In this document: piece after piece, positions 17,552-51,792 of the stretch
Layout: every line of letters begins with the position of its first letter
Numbering within the stretch: the stretch's first letter is position 1
From: a virus
Taxonomy: Duplodnaviria; Caudoviricetes
IMG/VR virus record: IMGVR_UViG_3300046522_000316
Span: 250,290 to 314,289 of that record
Strand: one strand, 5' to 3'
DNA length: 64,000 bases
The notes under the pieces: model-generated
Told to the model about the DNA's origin: nothing
What the model saw: the letters and a program-made list of their open reading frames with translations, nothing else
Databases searched by the model: none
Program-made: the position numbers and the translations under genes

Positions 17552-17766
17552 GTTCTACGCCTTCTTGTCCAGCGGGAAAATTTACAGGTAAGAAAACAGA
17601 TCACGATCAAGACAATCAGGAACCCGACAAACGAAATAACCGGGCTATCGAAAAATACAATCTTGAAGCGACCGCTATACCAATCAATTACTGGCATGAG
17701 GCACGTTCCAAAACTTAACGTAATGGAATCGCCGTGCCTTGCCCAAAGCCAACGCAGAAAGTTCAC
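17548..17766 (-). CDS. small membrane protein
   Basis: TM VISFVGFLIVLIVICFL. Confidence 0.6.
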   Translation of the reverse strand: MNFLRWLWARHGDSITLSFGTCLMPVIDWYSGRFKIVFFDSPVISFVGFLIVLIVICFLTCKFSRWTRRRRT

Positions 17767-18038
17767 TTGAACATTTTCTCTGCCGGAACGTTGTAAGTTT
17801 CCTGCGCCATCACCGAATAAAACAGGCGGGCCAGATCGGTATGCGCTACCGGCGTTTTGTTCATCATGCGGCTGCGAATTGCGCTCGCCATTTCAGGACT
17901 GACAAAACCGTTTTCGTCGAACAGCTTTGGCGCCACCATTGGCGTTTCGTTCACGCGCACGTTGTTCTGTTTCAACTGGCCGTTCGACAGGAACAGAGTG
18001 GACAGCGTTTTGGCAGCTTGCAGATTTTTGTCGTTCAT
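17763..18038 (-). CDS. hypothetical protein
   Basis: GGAG SD; coupled. Confidence 0.6.
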   Translation of the reverse strand: MNDKNLQAAKTLSTLFLSNGQLKQNNVRVNETPMVAPKLFDENGFVSPEMASAIRSRMMNKTPVAHTDLARLFYSVMAQETYNVPAEKMFK

Positions 18039-18039
18039 T

Positions 18040-18612
18040 TTATTGCTCCCGTTGGGCGATGCGCTGTTGCACGTAGTTGATAAGTTCGTTCGTGGTTTGC
18101 CACGTCATGTCTTCGTCAGGAATTTCGATGCTGAAATGATCCTCGACACACAACGTCAGATCGAACATTGCAATTTCGTCAGCTTCCATTTCGCTGAATG
18201 GAGTGCGGACGTTGATGTGTTCTGCGCGATAACCAAAACTACCGGCCACCATTTCGAGAATCGTGGCTTTCAATTCTGGTGCCATTTCACTCGGCATAAT
18301 TTCCTCTACTTCGTCAAAGGGCACGGTATCAGGCAGCGGGTAATTCTTGGCTGCGTCGTCAAGCGCAGCGCGCAACGTAGGCTTTGGTTCAGTTCGTTCA
18401 AACCGCCACATTAAATTGAATTCTTTGGCCGGTGTACGCTGGAACATATTCGGGTTGATCGACAGGCCGCTATTCGACAGGGCCGTGCGACGTTCCAGAT
18501 AATCGAGGCGATCAGTATCCCCGAAAAGTTCGCGCAATTTTGCAGCGAGTTTGTAATCGGATGCGCACACCAATTCGTATGCGCGTTGGCGTTCCTGTTT
18601 GGTCAGGCTCAT
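18040..18612 (-). CDS. protein with C-terminal acyl carrier protein-like domain lacking the Ppant serine
   Basis: aa ~112-187: EADEIAMFDLTLCVEDHFSIEIPDEDMTWQTTNELINYV aligns to AcpP [26 protein letters not shown]...TTV..AIDYI with Ser->Glu146. Confidence 0.75.
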   Translation of the reverse strand: MSLTKQERQRAYELVCASDYKLAAKLRELFGDTDRLDYLERRTALSNSGLSINPNMFQRTPAKEFNLMWRFERTEPKPTLRAALDDAAKNYPLPDTVPFDEVEEIMPSEMAPELKATILEMVAGSFGYRAEHINVRTPFSEMEADEIAMFDLTLCVEDHFSIEIPDEDMTWQTTNELINYVQQRIAQREQ

Positions 18613-32878: not shown

Positions 32879-33283
32879 TTAATCGTCAGAGTTAGGGTGA
32901 AAGTGATTCCACTCGGCTTGTTCCTGCGAGCGTTCCCACTGTGCCATTGCTTCGGCGCTGCATTCGTGACAGTCAGCGTACTCAATGTCATGTTTGCAAT
33001 ATTCCGTCTGGTCACATTCTGCATCAATGCGCCGTTCGTATTCTTCGTCGCAGGCTTCACAGCCGTCGCCGTAAATAACACCGTGGCCGCATTTCGCTGG
33101 CGGGCTGCAAATTTCACAGCCGTTAATTTCCTCGCCATGCTGGCAGTTATTGCAGTGATCGCAGCCGGTGCATTTATTGCTTTCGCAATTCTTGTACAGG
33201 GCTGTCGAAATGCACGCGTCGATTTCTTCTTCGAGCGTACAGATGTTGCACAGGCCACACGGGTTTTCGTTCGTGCATTCCAT
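32879..33283 (-). CDS. Cys-rich multi-Zn-finger-like acidic protein (134 aa)
   Basis: Start reassigned to MECTNE (GGAGGT SD); 19 Cys; three CxH-x(6-7)-CxxC units. Confidence 0.7.
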   Translation of the reverse strand: MECTNENPCGLCNICTLEEEIDACISTALYKNCESNKCTGCDHCNNCQHGEEINGCEICSPPAKCGHGVIYGDGCEACDEEYERRIDAECDQTEYCKHDIEYADCHECSAEAMAQWERSQEQAEWNHFHPNSDD

Positions 33284-33304
33284 TACATAAACCTCCGAAT
33301 TAAA

Positions 33305-33326
33305 GGGGCACCGTTTCAGATGCCCC
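33305..33326 (-). promoter_or_regulatory. family-C intergenic hairpin
   Basis: GGGGCATC-TGAAAC-GGTGCCCC. Confidence 0.5.
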
Positions 33327-33333
33327 CGGTTAA

Positions 33334-33915
33334 TTATTCGCTGACCTTTACCATTTTCAGAAGAACAGGCGCCAGCGGAACAATGGTGAAGTCCGTCGCG
33401 AATTTCTCCGCGAATGTTTGGCCGACCTGAAACGCGCCGTGCAACATATTCGGCGCCCATACCTGAAGCTGACATTTCTTTTCGTCAGCGGTGCCCGGCT
33501 CGAACGTGACGGCGAAATTGAAATCGCGACCTTCCGGCGTCGGTGCGTCGGAATATTCGATACCGTCCTCTTCCTTTTCTTCGACCGTGGGCACGGTGCC
33601 TTCTACTTCGTCGCACCAGTGCTGGATATCGTTCCATGCAGTCACCAGCAGCAGATAAACCGGATCGACGAATTCAGCAGGCACCACGCTTGCCACGGCT
33701 TCGCGCTCGTTCATGGTGTAGAACCGGGAGTGGTCAACGATGCAGTAGTGCGTCGGTTCACCACGGGCCGCACATTCGGCGCGCTTGATATCCATCGCGG
33801 CGCTAGCAGCGTCAGAGGCCGCTTTGTCGAACGAATTTTCGCGTGCTGCCATTGCTTCGCGAATCCATTTTGCGAATTGTACTTTGTCCATTTTCATACT
33901 TTCCTTTCTGTCCAT
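33334..33915 (-). CDS. hypothetical protein
   Basis: GAGGAAG SD. Confidence 0.65.
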   Translation of the reverse strand: MDRKESMKMDKVQFAKWIREAMAARENSFDKAASDAASAAMDIKRAECAARGEPTHYCIVDHSRFYTMNEREAVASVVPAEFVDPVYLLLVTAWNDIQHWCDEVEGTVPTVEEKEEDGIEYSDAPTPEGRDFNFAVTFEPGTADEKKCQLQVWAPNMLHGAFQVGQTFAEKFATDFTIVPLAPVLLKMVKVSE

Positions 33916-33930
33916 CTTTCACTTCCTCAG

Positions 33931-34146
33931 TTAAAAACGAGTGCCTACCAGTTTTGCAATAAGCGCTGGCGGGCTAATGGTTACGGTCAGCTTGCAGTAA
34001 CCGCAATCGACTTTCCACGTCGGCGGCATTGTGTGCTGCTCGCGAAAATCGCTTTCGTCACCTTGGCACGTCGCCCCGCATTTGGGGCAGGTGAAAATTA
34101 ATGGCGGTGCAGATAAAACTTTCATTGCTACCTCACTTGTCCCCAA
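33931..34146 (-). CDS. Zn-ribbon protein
   Basis: CPKCG...CGYC. Confidence 0.6.
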   Translation of the reverse strand: MGTSEVAMKVLSAPPLIFTCPKCGATCQGDESDFREQHTMPPTWKVDCGYCKLTVTISPPALIAKLVGTRF

Positions 34147-34295
34147 CGGTTACGAACCCTGTCGTGCCGTTTCGGTTCGCGTTTCAGTTTTTCAATTTGT
34201 TCCTGCTTGCGTTGTTCCCGCAAGTATTCTGCAAATTGACGGTCGGCCCAGTCGCGCTGTTGCTGGCGCATGTTGTCGTGCCAGAACATAATTAA
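34101..34295 (-). CDS. hypothetical protein
   Basis: Hydrophobic small ORF; frame uncertain. Confidence 0.3.
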
Positions 34296-35527
34296 ATCCC
34301 CGATGTGATAATTGCAAAGTCACTCGGATTCAAATCGGTGTGCTGTGCAAATTTAACCAGTTCGGTAAAACCGAATCGGCCCGCCAGTTCGTCGATGATT
34401 TCGATCCGGCGTTTCATGCCCGACAATTCGTGAACTGCGGAAGCGTCGAAGTCGCACTTGCCTTCGTTTACGATGTGGTTAAAAAGGGCAACCAGACCGG
34501 GCGTAGAAACATCCGCCAACAAATCCACGATTTCGTCTTCGTCTTCCGCGTCGATAGTTTCGCCGTCGATTTCCTCTTCCTCTTCTTCGAGGTCGTCAGG
34601 GTCACGGAACGAAGAACAGACGTTGTAGCAACTGCGGCGGCACGGGTGAACCGATTCAATCATTTCGCGAAACACACGCAGCACGTCAGATTGCGCATGC
34701 GCCACGACGTTTTCACTTTCGTATAAATCGAAAACCCGATCCGTGATTTTCAATTCGAACGCTCGCTGCAAACTGAACAATTGCTGCGTCGTGTCTTTGC
34801 CGTTGTACAGGTGCTGCATATAGCGCAGCGATTGTTTCACGCAGGCCACATAACGCACGATTACAGATACCAGCCATTCGTCTAGGCTCTTCGGCATTGC
34901 AGCGCCAGACAAACGCGCCATATCGCACAGGGCCAGAATGTGCGACTCGGAACCGACGTTGTGATCAATCACCAGCATTTCACCAACGTACAAACGGAAG
35001 CCGTTAAAGCCTTCGCTGATTTCCACCACAGCACGGGCGAACGTGGTCGCGTTGGGCACGTTGCACAGGTGAATTGCACCGTCGCTGTGAATCTGCATCA
35101 CGAAACCGGCAGTGGCTTTTGTAGGCGCCAATTTCTTTTCGAGGTCGCCCATGATCAGCGACAGATTGTGCGGACGGCTGTTTTGGAATTTGACAGGCTC
35201 GCCAATTTCCTTTGCCATTTTCACCACGACCTTTTTCGGCTGCGCTACACGCGGCGCAGAATCCATCGGTTCGTGATTGGCGATATACGTTTCAATATCA
35301 CGAACCGTTCTCCAACCACTCGATACGCCGCCCGGAATTTCGATTTCGAATTCCTCTTCAAGATCCATGAGGATTTCGCCAAGATCCATTCCGTTGATTT
35401 TCAGGGAATGTCTGATCGTGTCTTCCGAATCAATCGGGTGCCCGATTTTCATGCCCATGTGATCAGTAATGACGCGGCGAATGCGGTTCATTTGATCAGC
35501 GGAAACTTTCTTGCTCGGCTTAGCCAT
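34292..35527 (-). CDS. 411-aa multidomain protein with N-terminal ACP-like domain lacking the Ppant serine
   Basis: Start MAKPSKK after family-B leader; LKINGMDLGEILMDLEEEFEIEIP...WRTVRDIETYI aligns to AcpP with Ser->Gly46; acidic tract near C-terminus. Confidence 0.75.
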   Translation of the reverse strand: MAKPSKKVSADQMNRIRRVITDHMGMKIGHPIDSEDTIRHSLKINGMDLGEILMDLEEEFEIEIPGGVSSGWRTVRDIETYIANHEPMDSAPRVAQPKKVVVKMAKEIGEPVKFQNSRPHNLSLIMGDLEKKLAPTKATAGFVMQIHSDGAIHLCNVPNATTFARAVVEISEGFNGFRLYVGEMLVIDHNVGSESHILALCDMARLSGAAMPKSLDEWLVSVIVRYVACVKQSLRYMQHLYNGKDTTQQLFSLQRAFELKITDRVFDLYESENVVAHAQSDVLRVFREMIESVHPCRRSCYNVCSSFRDPDDLEEEEEEIDGETIDAEDEDEIVDLLADVSTPGLVALFNHIVNEGKCDFDASAVHELSGMKRRIEIIDELAGRFGFTELVKFAQHTDLNPSDFAIITSGI

Positions 35528-35535
35528 GGTGCGAA

Positions 35536-35592
35536 TTCCTTGATAAAGGTCAGTTTGATTTACTACTGACAAAACCCACACATGGCGGGCTT
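35536..35592 (-). repeat. family-B leader: hairpin + GTCAGTAGT + CTTTATCAAGGAA
   Basis: AAGCCCGC-CATGT-GTGGGTTTTGTCAGTAGTAAATCAAACTGACCTTTATCAAGGAA. Confidence 0.75.
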
Positions 35593-35608: not shown

Positions 35609-35890
35609 TTAGCGGGAATGCAGCGTGTCGAGGTCGTCGTCGGAATCGTGAAAATCTTCGTCGTCTTCCTCTTCCTCTTCCTGCTCTTCGTCCTGTTCAT
35701 CGTCGTCAGGATTATCAGGCACCATATTTTCGTACTGCGCTTCACGTTCCGCGTTGATCCGATCTTTATCGGCTTGCGGTAGTGCGTCCCATGCTGCTTT
35801 TTCCTGCGCGATTTCTACACGGGCTTTTTCGACCAGCCGCGTTTCCTCTTCGAGGAACAAATCGCCCAGCGTTACACGTTTGTCGCTCAT
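35609..35890 (-). CDS. small protein with highly acidic C-terminus
   Basis: PDNPDDDEQDEEQEEEEEDDEDFHDSDDDLD; GAGGA SD. Confidence 0.7.
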   Translation of the reverse strand: MSDKRVTLGDLFLEEETRLVEKARVEIAQEKAAWDALPQADKDRINAEREAQYENMVPDNPDDDEQDEEQEEEEEDDEDFHDSDDDLDTLHSR

Positions 35891-48375: not shown

Positions 48376-48866
48376 GGTTTCGTTCCTTCTACGACGGTGA
48401 AATTAGAACGGTTGCCGCGTGCAAAGGCGTCACGCAATTCTGCGCGGTCAATGTCACGCATAATCAGCAGACCGTTTCCTGTTGAGGTGATACGTTGTTC
48501 GAGTTCGGAATATTCAGCGTCCATAATAAATTCGAGCGCTTTCCAAATATCCTGCATCTGGAATTTCAGACGCTGCTTCGTATGTTCTTCGTCGTGCTGT
48601 TCCGTCGTCTTGTTGTACAGGACGATAATCGGCAGGTGGTCGTAATCGAATTCGACGCCAGCTTCTACCAATTTCACGGCGAACATATACGGGCGCATTT
48701 TCAAATCTGCGAATGCGGCGGAACTACGCACGTCCACATTAATTTTGCTGGTGTCAGGTTTCAGGAACGCCCGGAATTTTTCTGACAGGTCTGGATACTG
48801 ACCAATGAGCGACCACACGTCGCCCTGCTCGGGAACCTCAGAAGACAGCACGGTTAAATAAAGCAT
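48372..48866 (-). CDS. hypothetical protein
   Basis: Follows family-B leader. Confidence 0.7.
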   Translation of the reverse strand: MLYLTVLSSEVPEQGDVWSLIGQYPDLSEKFRAFLKPDTSKINVDVRSSAAFADLKMRPYMFAVKLVEAGVEFDYDHLPIIVLYNKTTEQHDEEHTKQRLKFQMQDIWKALEFIMDAEYSELEQRITSTGNGLLIMRDIDRAELRDAFARGNRSNFTVVEGTKP

Positions 48867-48874
48867 GGTTTCAT

Positions 48875-48925
48875 TTCCTTGATAAAGGTCACTACTGACA
48901 AAACCCGCACATGGCGGGCTTGTCG
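48875..48925 (-). repeat. family-B leader
   Basis: AAGCCCGC-CATGT-GCGGGTTTTGTCAGTAGTGACCTTTATCAAGGAA. Confidence 0.75.
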
Positions 48926-49994: not shown

Positions 49995-50001
49995 GATTTT
50001 G

Positions 50002-50060
50002 TTCCTTGATAAAGGTCGATTTGTTTTACTACTGACAAAGCCCGCACATGGCGGGCTAAG
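50002..50060 (-). repeat. family-B leader
   Basis: TAGCCCGC-CATGT-GCGGGCTTTGTCAGTAGTAAAACAAATCGACCTTTATCAAGGAA. Confidence 0.75.
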
Positions 50061-51095: not shown

Positions 51096-51102
51096 TTTTG
51101 CA

Positions 51103-51159
51103 TTCCTTGATAAAGGGCGATTTGTTTTACTACCGACAAACCCCGCACTTGGCGGGGTA
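51103..51159 (-). repeat. family-B leader (compensatory stem variant)
   Basis: TACCCCGC-CAAGT-GCGGGGTTTGTCGGTAGTAAAACAAATCGCCCTTTATCAAGGAA. Confidence 0.75.
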
Positions 51160-51164
51160 GTTGG

Positions 51165-51459: not shown

Positions 51460-51792
51460 TTACAGGTCGTCGCGGTTGATTGTGAATCCCGCACCGTGGC
51501 GGTTAATGATGGTTAAAAGTCTTCCGCCTTCGGGTTCTTTCGGAAGCGGCGCGTCAGGATCATAGGTCGTAAGGTAATCGACAATATCCTGCGGCGTCTT
51601 CCAACCGTGGCCCGCAACGTAACCAACCTTTAGATGGAAATCACGTTCCAGCGACAGGCCCAAAATGTCCAAGTCCACGCGATTCTGAATCAGGTGAACT
51701 AGCGGCGTGTCGAGTTTCACCAGCACCGGATTAGTTGCGGTGGCAGTGGCTACGATTCGAAGCACTTCAGCGGCGATTACTTGCATATCCAT
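51460..51792 (-). CDS. stand-alone ACP-like protein lacking the Ppant serine
   Basis: LDTPLVHLIQNRVDLDILGLSLERDF...GWKTPQDIVDYL aligns to the ACP fold with Ser->Arg38. Confidence 0.65.
   Translation of the reverse strand: MDMQVIAAEVLRIVATATATNPVLVKLDTPLVHLIQNRVDLDILGLSLERDFHLKVGYVAGHGWKTPQDIVDYLTTYDPDAPLPKEPEGGRLLTIINRHGAGFTINRDDL

Follow-up and report, generated by a model that had tools for sequence, protein, structure and literature searches.

A serine-less acyl carrier protein-like domain at the head of a phage-specific two-domain module in an uncultured soil jumbo phage

Why should a phage encode a domain that resembles an acyl carrier protein (ACP) but has no serine at the phosphopantetheine attachment site, and what could such a domain do at the head of a larger protein? 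This question is raised by a gene on the minus strand of a 64,000-nucleotide stretch of viral DNA (positions 250,290 to 314,289 of the IMG/VR virus record IMGVR_UViG_3300046522_000316; the whole stretch is called the window in the following), which encodes a protein of 411 amino acids (aa), P0001. ACP is among the most connected bacterial proteins, taking part in lipid, lipid A, biotin, and lipoate synthesis and having IscS, MukB, and SpoT among its partners. Phosphopantetheine is attached to the D-S-L serine where helix II begins, and the acidic helix II together with the following loop forms the surface by which ACP docks on partner proteins. Databases label phage genes of this type as 'acyl carrier protein' metabolic genes. 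In the papers found by literature searches, phage ACP genes appear only as auxiliary metabolic or virion-associated genes, and none of these papers describes a serine-less phage ACP. The features needed to follow the argument are these:

34292..35527, minus strand: complete gene of P0001, 411 aa plus stop codon
35273..35503, minus strand: ACP-like domain, aa 9-85, homologue of the AcpP type, predicted non-carrier
35390..35392, minus strand: codon of Gly46, which aligns with the phosphopantetheine-acceptor Ser36 of AcpP

The translation of the open reading frame (ORF) contains no internal stop, and 11 full-length orthologues with 58-87% identity were found. The ATG start codon (35525-35527) has the sequence AAGGAA 8 nt upstream. 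A longer frame of 429 aa with a GTG start at 35581 was also listed mechanically; this start is not used, because the homologues begin at the methionine of the ATG at 35525-35527, which P0001 shares with 11 of 11 full-length homologues. For the whole gene, the ratio of nonsynonymous to synonymous substitution rates (dN/dS) was 0.24-0.35. It is a real, conserved gene of an uncultured soil jumbo phage of roughly 314 kb, whose sequence is present in rhizosphere and soil metagenomes of several independent studies and for which Pseudomonas phage HRDY3 (313.7 kb) is the single named relative at the DNA or protein level. The window is laid out as a run of small genes, nearly all of them on the minus strand. 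A separate observation concerns the comparison with the orthologue P0004 (L014:65-1297), in which synonymous divergence (dS) was 0.09 in the ACP domain and 0.64 in the linker and C-terminal bundle; this about seven-fold spread along the gene suggests recombination within it.

The relationship of the N-terminal domain to ACPs was recognized by phmmer, by a profile of orthologues, and by PHROG 5934. In a phmmer search against the Protein Data Bank (PDB), aa 9-85 aligned end to end with the ACP of Bacillus subtilis (E 5.8e-7), and in HMMER alignments with Escherichia coli AcpP the E-value was about 4-8e-5. A profile of 10 orthologous N-terminal domains reached a best E-value of 7e-11 against the PDB and matched 103 PDB sequences at E <= 0.001; all 60 of the 60 matches listed were acyl-carrier-type proteins, mostly from type II fatty acid synthesis together with mitochondrial ACPs. 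PHROG 5934, named 'acyl carrier protein', matched P0001 with an E-value of 2.5e-6. At the level of sequence, the domain, which has an isoelectric point (pI) of 4.85, descends from a type II ACP. Short relatives consisting of this domain alone were not found by a word-based search.

The first-pass annotation of this DNA had noticed a segment close to the helix II signature of AcpP with Gly46 at the serine position. This was borne out: the segment EILMDLEEEFEIEIP is present, and every HMMER alignment to the ACPs of B. subtilis and E. coli sets DSLD against NGMD, which puts Gly46 in the place of Ser36 of AcpP. The acceptor position is occupied by Gly, Thr, or Asp in 11 of 11 orthologues and never by Ser, with Thr found in P0004. 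Neither Ser34 nor Ser41, the alternatives named in the first-pass annotation, is conserved among the orthologues, and there is no other conserved serine. The docking surface is kept. Of the 21 positions in the segment from helix II into the loop, 11 agree with E. coli ACP (D38, E41, M44, L46, E47-E49, F50, E53, I54, P55), and the mean pairwise identity among orthologues is 0.76 in this segment and 0.77 in the middle domain, the highest in the protein. Positions of the N-terminal domain that are invariant among orthologues comprise M54, F60, P65, W72, and the EEEF block, and its dN/dS was 0.19 both against P0002 and against P0005. This pattern indicates a docking surface that is kept under purifying selection, on a domain that is predicted not to be loadable at the canonical site. 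The serine is the defining feature of an acyl carrier protein, and the domain, which lacks it, does not merit that annotation. Trp72, which takes the place of the AcpP pocket residue Ile62, was also considered as a marker of serine loss and was dropped, as a serine-bearing ACP of HRDY3 has the same Trp.

P0001 is not the only protein in the window with an ACP-derived domain. Two further loci were detected:

18040..18612, minus strand: second serine-less ACP domain, in the 190-aa protein P0025, a C-terminal ACP (aa 117-181) with Glu at the serine position
51460..51792, minus strand: third serine-less ACP-like gene, encoding the 110-aa stand-alone protein P0026 with Arg at the serine position

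The domain of P0025 was assigned by the Pfam family PP-binding (33.7 bits), and that of P0026, which has no Pfam match of its own, by phmmer against the N-terminal domain of P0001 (E 1.8e-5). Hence, three of three ACP-derived domains in the window are without the serine, and two of two in HRDY3 possess it. One of the latter is XDJ15383, the orthologue of P0025. The other is the free ACP XDJ15384, whose best match in the window is the N-terminal domain of P0001 (35% identity, E 4e-11 in pairwise comparison, Trp72 shared); the slot of XDJ15384, directly after the P0025 orthologue, is filled in the window by an ORF of 91 aa unrelated to ACP (17763-18038, minus strand). ACPs fused to unrelated partners occur in the phage group in P0025 and, outside the window, in P0030 and P0032, the last of which combines an N-terminal ACP that has its serine with a different C-terminal domain. 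In the genome of a relative, L007:11521-12180 encodes a 219-aa protein composed of a canonical serine-bearing N-terminal ACP, a charged linker, and an unrelated C-terminal domain. With the complete HRDY3 genome as stand-in for a whole-genome screen of ACPs and transferases, no phosphopantetheinyl transferase or adenylating enzyme was recognizable in that genome. No ACP-using enzyme was recognized among the 20 neighboring genes scanned.

Behind the ACP-like domain, P0001 contains a linker and a core module of two domains separated by an acidic stretch:

35192..35272, minus strand: Pro/Lys-rich linker, aa 86-112, net charge +0.8
34637..35191, minus strand: orphan middle domain, aa 113-297
34544..34636, minus strand: disordered acidic tract, aa 298-328, net charge -11
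34295..34543, minus strand: C-terminal six-helix bundle, aa 329-411

The linker was delimited by its composition and by a predicted local distance difference test score (pLDDT) below 50 for aa 86-101 in AF2 models, and the acidic tract likewise by pLDDT <50. The presence of two or more unknown domains and of an acidic tract, both noted in the first-pass annotation, was confirmed. The middle domain was modeled as an alpha/beta-plus-helical domain (pLDDT 86.6, predicted template modeling score (pTM) 0.80 for the domain model) in the order helix, five-stranded antiparallel sheet, and helical sub-domain; the C-terminal helical bundle was modeled with pLDDT 80-90 and contains invariant columns. The acidic run DPDDLEEEEEEIDGETIDAEDEDE covers aa 308-331 and thus extends past the mapped tract end at aa 328. 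This tract is the least conserved part of the protein (identity 0.48), with length and sequence varying among relatives.

Residues that are invariant or nearly invariant across the family were found in the middle domain (G176, P212, W218, L240, V265) and in the C-terminal bundle (D335, L337, T342, R374, I378). Judged by residue type, they are probably structural and do not resemble a catalytic set, and the core domains look like binding or scaffold domains. No match to an enzyme or toxin family was obtained for them with Pfam, PDB profiles, or the atlas. In searches against the PDB, Foldseek returned nothing at E <= 0.001 for either the full-length or the middle-domain model. The atlas shape searches gave a template modeling score (TM) by the model of at most 0.40 and no informative family, the ESM Atlas feature search with aa 105-411 gave no usable match, and a profile of the middle domain matched only designed coiled coils in the PDB (E > 0.02). 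In BFVD, the middle domain matched uncharacterized proteins of phage PaBG and of an uncultured myovirus (probability 0.96-0.99). VIA aligned the middle domain with the C-terminal domain of Mediator Med17 (Z 6.1), and for aa 326-411 it listed almost only death-fold domains (CARD, PYD, DD) with Z 5-6.6 and a root-mean-square deviation (rmsd) of 2.6-3.4 over 70-85 residues, values under the helical-bundle noise level stated by the tool. A profile of the C-terminal bundle found no death-fold match in the PDB. An RRP15-like protein that appeared as a relative of the bundle in the PDB profile search (E 2e-4, 46 residues) was taken as compositional and rejected. Paralogues of the middle or C-terminal domain are absent from the 64-kb window.

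A profile of the core module searched against 1.84 billion representatives found 13 proteins, nine of them at E <= 1e-10, and the relatives that could be traced all lie on contigs of 257-320 kb with the same layout of many small genes. A search of the IMG/VR viral contigs with the family alignment yielded no confirmed relative. Seven core-module relatives of about 300-350 aa have no N-terminal domain, namely XDJ15348 of HRDY3, P0015, and five more distant proteins. An N-terminal ACP domain is present in two more distant groups, P0021, which has the canonical serine, and P0022-24, whose N-terminal domains still match ACPs (E 1.6e-4) and are without the serine. Because the syntenic HRDY3 orthologue and six other relatives are without the ACP-like domain, this domain is an optional add-on to a conserved, apparently non-catalytic phage module. 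The idea put forward earlier, that the ACP-like domain is a targeting tag carrying an effector to an ACP-binding host enzyme, is partly supported. The tag as an add-on module agrees with the unfused relatives, with the other ACP fusions, and with the loss of the serine alongside a conserved docking helix, whereas the term 'effector' finds no support in a core with structural-type residues and no enzyme or toxin match. As a separate observation on the family, the stop codons of the P0021 and P0022 genes lie within the overlap with a short gene for a GNAT acetyltransferase (107-131 aa), which is found three to four genes downstream of unfused homologues; such a neighbor is absent from the 64-kb window. 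The copies in relatives are located as follows:

L002:11308-11691: GNAT acetyltransferase gene of a relative
L007:7263-7619: GNAT acetyltransferase gene of a relative
L008:8299-8694: GNAT acetyltransferase gene of a relative
L010:6522-6845: GNAT acetyltransferase gene of a relative

From these data we infer that P0001 is a non-carrier, apo-ACP-like docking module on a phage-specific scaffold, which would compete or act as a tether at an ACP-recognizing protein; we hold this reading tentatively, with a probability of about 0.45. The ACP-like domain would serve as a permanently 'apo' docking handle that either tethers the core module to a protein recognizing the docking helix of ACP or contends with genuine ACP for such a protein. 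As a target, a host client that accepts apo-ACP, for example phosphopantetheinyl transferase or glycerol-phosphate acyltransferase, would be most likely, and a phage partner would be less likely. The core module would add binding, sequestering, or oligomerizing capacity and not catalysis. Unmodified apo-ACP strongly inhibits the growth of E. coli via glycerol-3-phosphate acyltransferase, as reported by Keating, Carey and Cronan 1995 in the account given in PMC3896788, so that a serine-less ACP could act on host lipid metabolism by binding alone.

Several observations weigh against this proposal. The Pfam family PP-binding (PF00550) scored P0001 with 18.6 bits, below the curated cut-off of 20.8, although 27.2 bits were reached by the orthologue P0006 and 55.8 bits by P0021, a distant relative with the fusion. 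In the full-length AF2 model, the N-terminal domain was poorly modeled: its helices (10-23, 35-41, 47-59, and 75-85) lie in the places expected for an ACP, with a pLDDT of only about 50, and consequently the assignment of the ACP fold rests on sequence and profile evidence. Foldseek listed ACPs at probabilities of 0.3-0.6 only. Against P0004, the dN/dS of the N-terminal domain was 0.83, but with a dS of 0.09 the number of substitutions behind this value is very small. According to PMC3896788, apo-ACP is not bound by SpoT; some ACP partners need holo-ACP, which restricts the possible targets and makes SpoT-type ones less likely. The computations identified no partner of the ACP-like domain, neither in the host nor in the phage. 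Finally, the serine is still present in P0021, P0032, and the ACPs of HRDY3. The phage ACP modules may therefore go back to true carriers, and those without the serine need not function by mimicking host ACP.

The most serious alternative, which we regard as rather unlikely, is that the ACP-like domain has a phage protein or its own core as docking partner and functions as a regulatory or assembly domain. The core would then be an ACP-binding protein that works in HRDY3 together with the free ACP XDJ15384, and P0001 would be a 'Rosetta stone' fusion of the two. Such an explanation is suggested by the split arrangement in HRDY3, where the core XDJ15348 and the stand-alone ACP XDJ15384 are separate genes; it would also suit the fusion of ACP and core in three groups of the family, as well as the finding that the closest counterpart of XDJ15384 in the window is the N-terminal domain of P0001 while the XDJ15384 slot holds an unrelated ORF. 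It fits less well that the full-length AF2 model (pTM 0.49) gives the N-terminal domain no fixed placement against the core, that no ACP gene was found next to the core gene in several phages that have the core, and that with P0026 a further free ACP-like gene exists in the window. The acidity of P0001 allows a different and clearly unlikely explanation, namely that the protein is a nucleic-acid mimic or a chaperone for basic proteins, its ACP ancestry being incidental. The pI of the whole protein is 5.0, the net charges of the N-terminal domain, the tract, and the C-terminal bundle are -7, -11, and -10, and the conserved upstream neighbor is a 93-aa protein with a long acidic tail. However, the conservation of the N-terminal domain at M54, F60, P65, W72, and EEEF is position-specific and not merely compositional, and the acidic tract is precisely the part that is conserved least.

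Structural resemblance of the middle domain opens up a further explanation, in which this domain would be an analogue of the RecA inhibitor PsiB or of the IscS partner frataxin/CyaY and would target host RecA or Fe-S assembly. PsiB (Z 7.1 with the whole model and 5.8 with the domain model; rmsd 3.4-4.1 over 96-106 residues) and several frataxins (Z 4.5-5.8) were among the top rows of the VIA comparison, and ACP shares its binding region on E. coli IscS with CyaY (PMC13343975). We nevertheless consider it very improbable: all Z-scores are below 8, and Z 7-8 is the level stated by the tool as reached by chance for models without relatives; identity is 3-9%, the Foldseek probabilities are at most 0.15 (PsiB 0.15, frataxin/CyaY 0.14-0.15), and unrelated alpha/beta sandwiches such as Mediator Med17, capping protein, and type III secretion chaperones score the same. 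That the domain still works as a carrier, with a non-canonical residue as attachment site or with a phage enzyme loading it, appears extremely improbable. A canonical DSL serine is found in P0021, P0032, and the HRDY3 ACPs, and P0004 has Thr at the site, but the 11 orthologues share no conserved Ser or Thr at or beside the site, and HRDY3, as described above, offers neither a phosphopantetheinyl transferase nor an adenylating enzyme, just as the 20 neighbors offer no ACP-using enzyme. The broadest and decidedly improbable idea combines several of these elements into a carrier-module network of jumbo phages, in which ACP-derived domains with or without serine would be interchangeable docking units; in P0001, an ACP handle and a frataxin/PsiB-like sandwich would clamp a host hub such as IscS, and a death-fold-like bundle would oligomerize. 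If this were true, it would represent a new kind of host-takeover or anti-defense device that mimics the most connected small protein of the cell.

The region upstream of the gene carries a feature of its own:

35528..35589, minus strand: 5' cassette with GC hairpin (35575-35589), T-run, conserved leader, and AAGGAA ribosome-binding site (35536-35541)

The leader that had been attributed to this gene is real: a hairpin and a T-run are followed by a conserved block, about 40 nt long, that ends in AAGGAA, and three other genes share this arrangement. In total, four copies of the cassette (35528-35589, 48867-48925, 49995-50060, and 51096-51160) precede four unrelated minus-strand genes of the window, the other three of which start at 48866, 49994, and 51095. 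A 16-mer of the cassette had five matches compared with 0.49 expected. Close relatives also have the cassette, and a compensatory change is seen in the hairpin. A scan for sigma-70 promoters near the P0001 gene detected no site before the gene. By its sequence, the cassette resembles a hairpin for termination or processing to which a shared 5' leader is attached, and it may mark a set of co-regulated genes or represent a terminator-plus-leader unit that moves with genes.

The neighboring genes were inspected as well. Upstream, the 93-aa protein (35609-35890, minus strand) is helical and conserved in its N-terminal half and has a long tail of Asp and Glu, and XDJ15347 is located at the same position in HRDY3. 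Downstream lie two tiny minus-strand genes, one for a basic helical protein of 53 aa (34128-34289) and one for a zinc-ribbon-like protein with a CxxC...CxxC pattern of about 64-71 aa (33931-34146); in close relatives, both follow the P0001 homologue at a spacing of 3 nt, and HRDY3 has neither of them. Further along, a cysteine-rich ORF with many CxxC pairs (32879-33475, minus strand), as listed, has about 140 nt in common with the end of the 193-aa gene. Its true start is probably internal, because relatives have a gene of 132-134 aa at this place.

Two aspects are new here, the fusion of an ACP-like domain to an orphan two-domain module confined to jumbo phages and the occurrence of three serine-less ACP domains in one phage. 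Also new is the natural dissection provided by the family, which comprises orthologues with the domain, without the domain, and with a serine-bearing version of it. An unloadable copy of the ACP docking surface is a plausible means to block or hijack ACP partners. Once found, the target would show what use jumbo phages make of ACP look-alikes, and a new vulnerable point in the physiology of Pseudomonas could come to light.

Three comparisons place P0001 among known proteins. With XDJ15348 of HRDY3 (337 aa, UniRef A0AB39CET0), it shares the core: the HRDY3 protein is an orthologue of aa 110-411 with 34-39% identity (E 2e-36) and occupies the syntenic slot, with the same acidic gene of 93-96 aa upstream and the same 193-aa gene downstream. 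In contrast to P0001, it has no ACP-like domain, and HRDY3 carries two separate serine-bearing ACP genes. P0021, a metagenomic jumbo-phage protein (435 aa, on an ENA contig of 279.7 kb), has the same architecture as P0001, with an N-terminal ACP, a linker, and the same core (E 1e-9 to the core profile), but differs in its canonical GGDSLD motif, with which, in view of its PP-binding score, it could be pantetheinylated. AcpP itself (PF00550) resembles the N-terminal domain of P0001 over the full length of its about 77 residues, in the D..E..M.LEEEF.(E)IP block, and in its acidity. The phage domain departs from AcpP in having Gly46 for the acceptor Ser and Trp for the pocket residue Ile62, in being encoded by a phage, and in being fused to about 325 residues of phage-only sequence.

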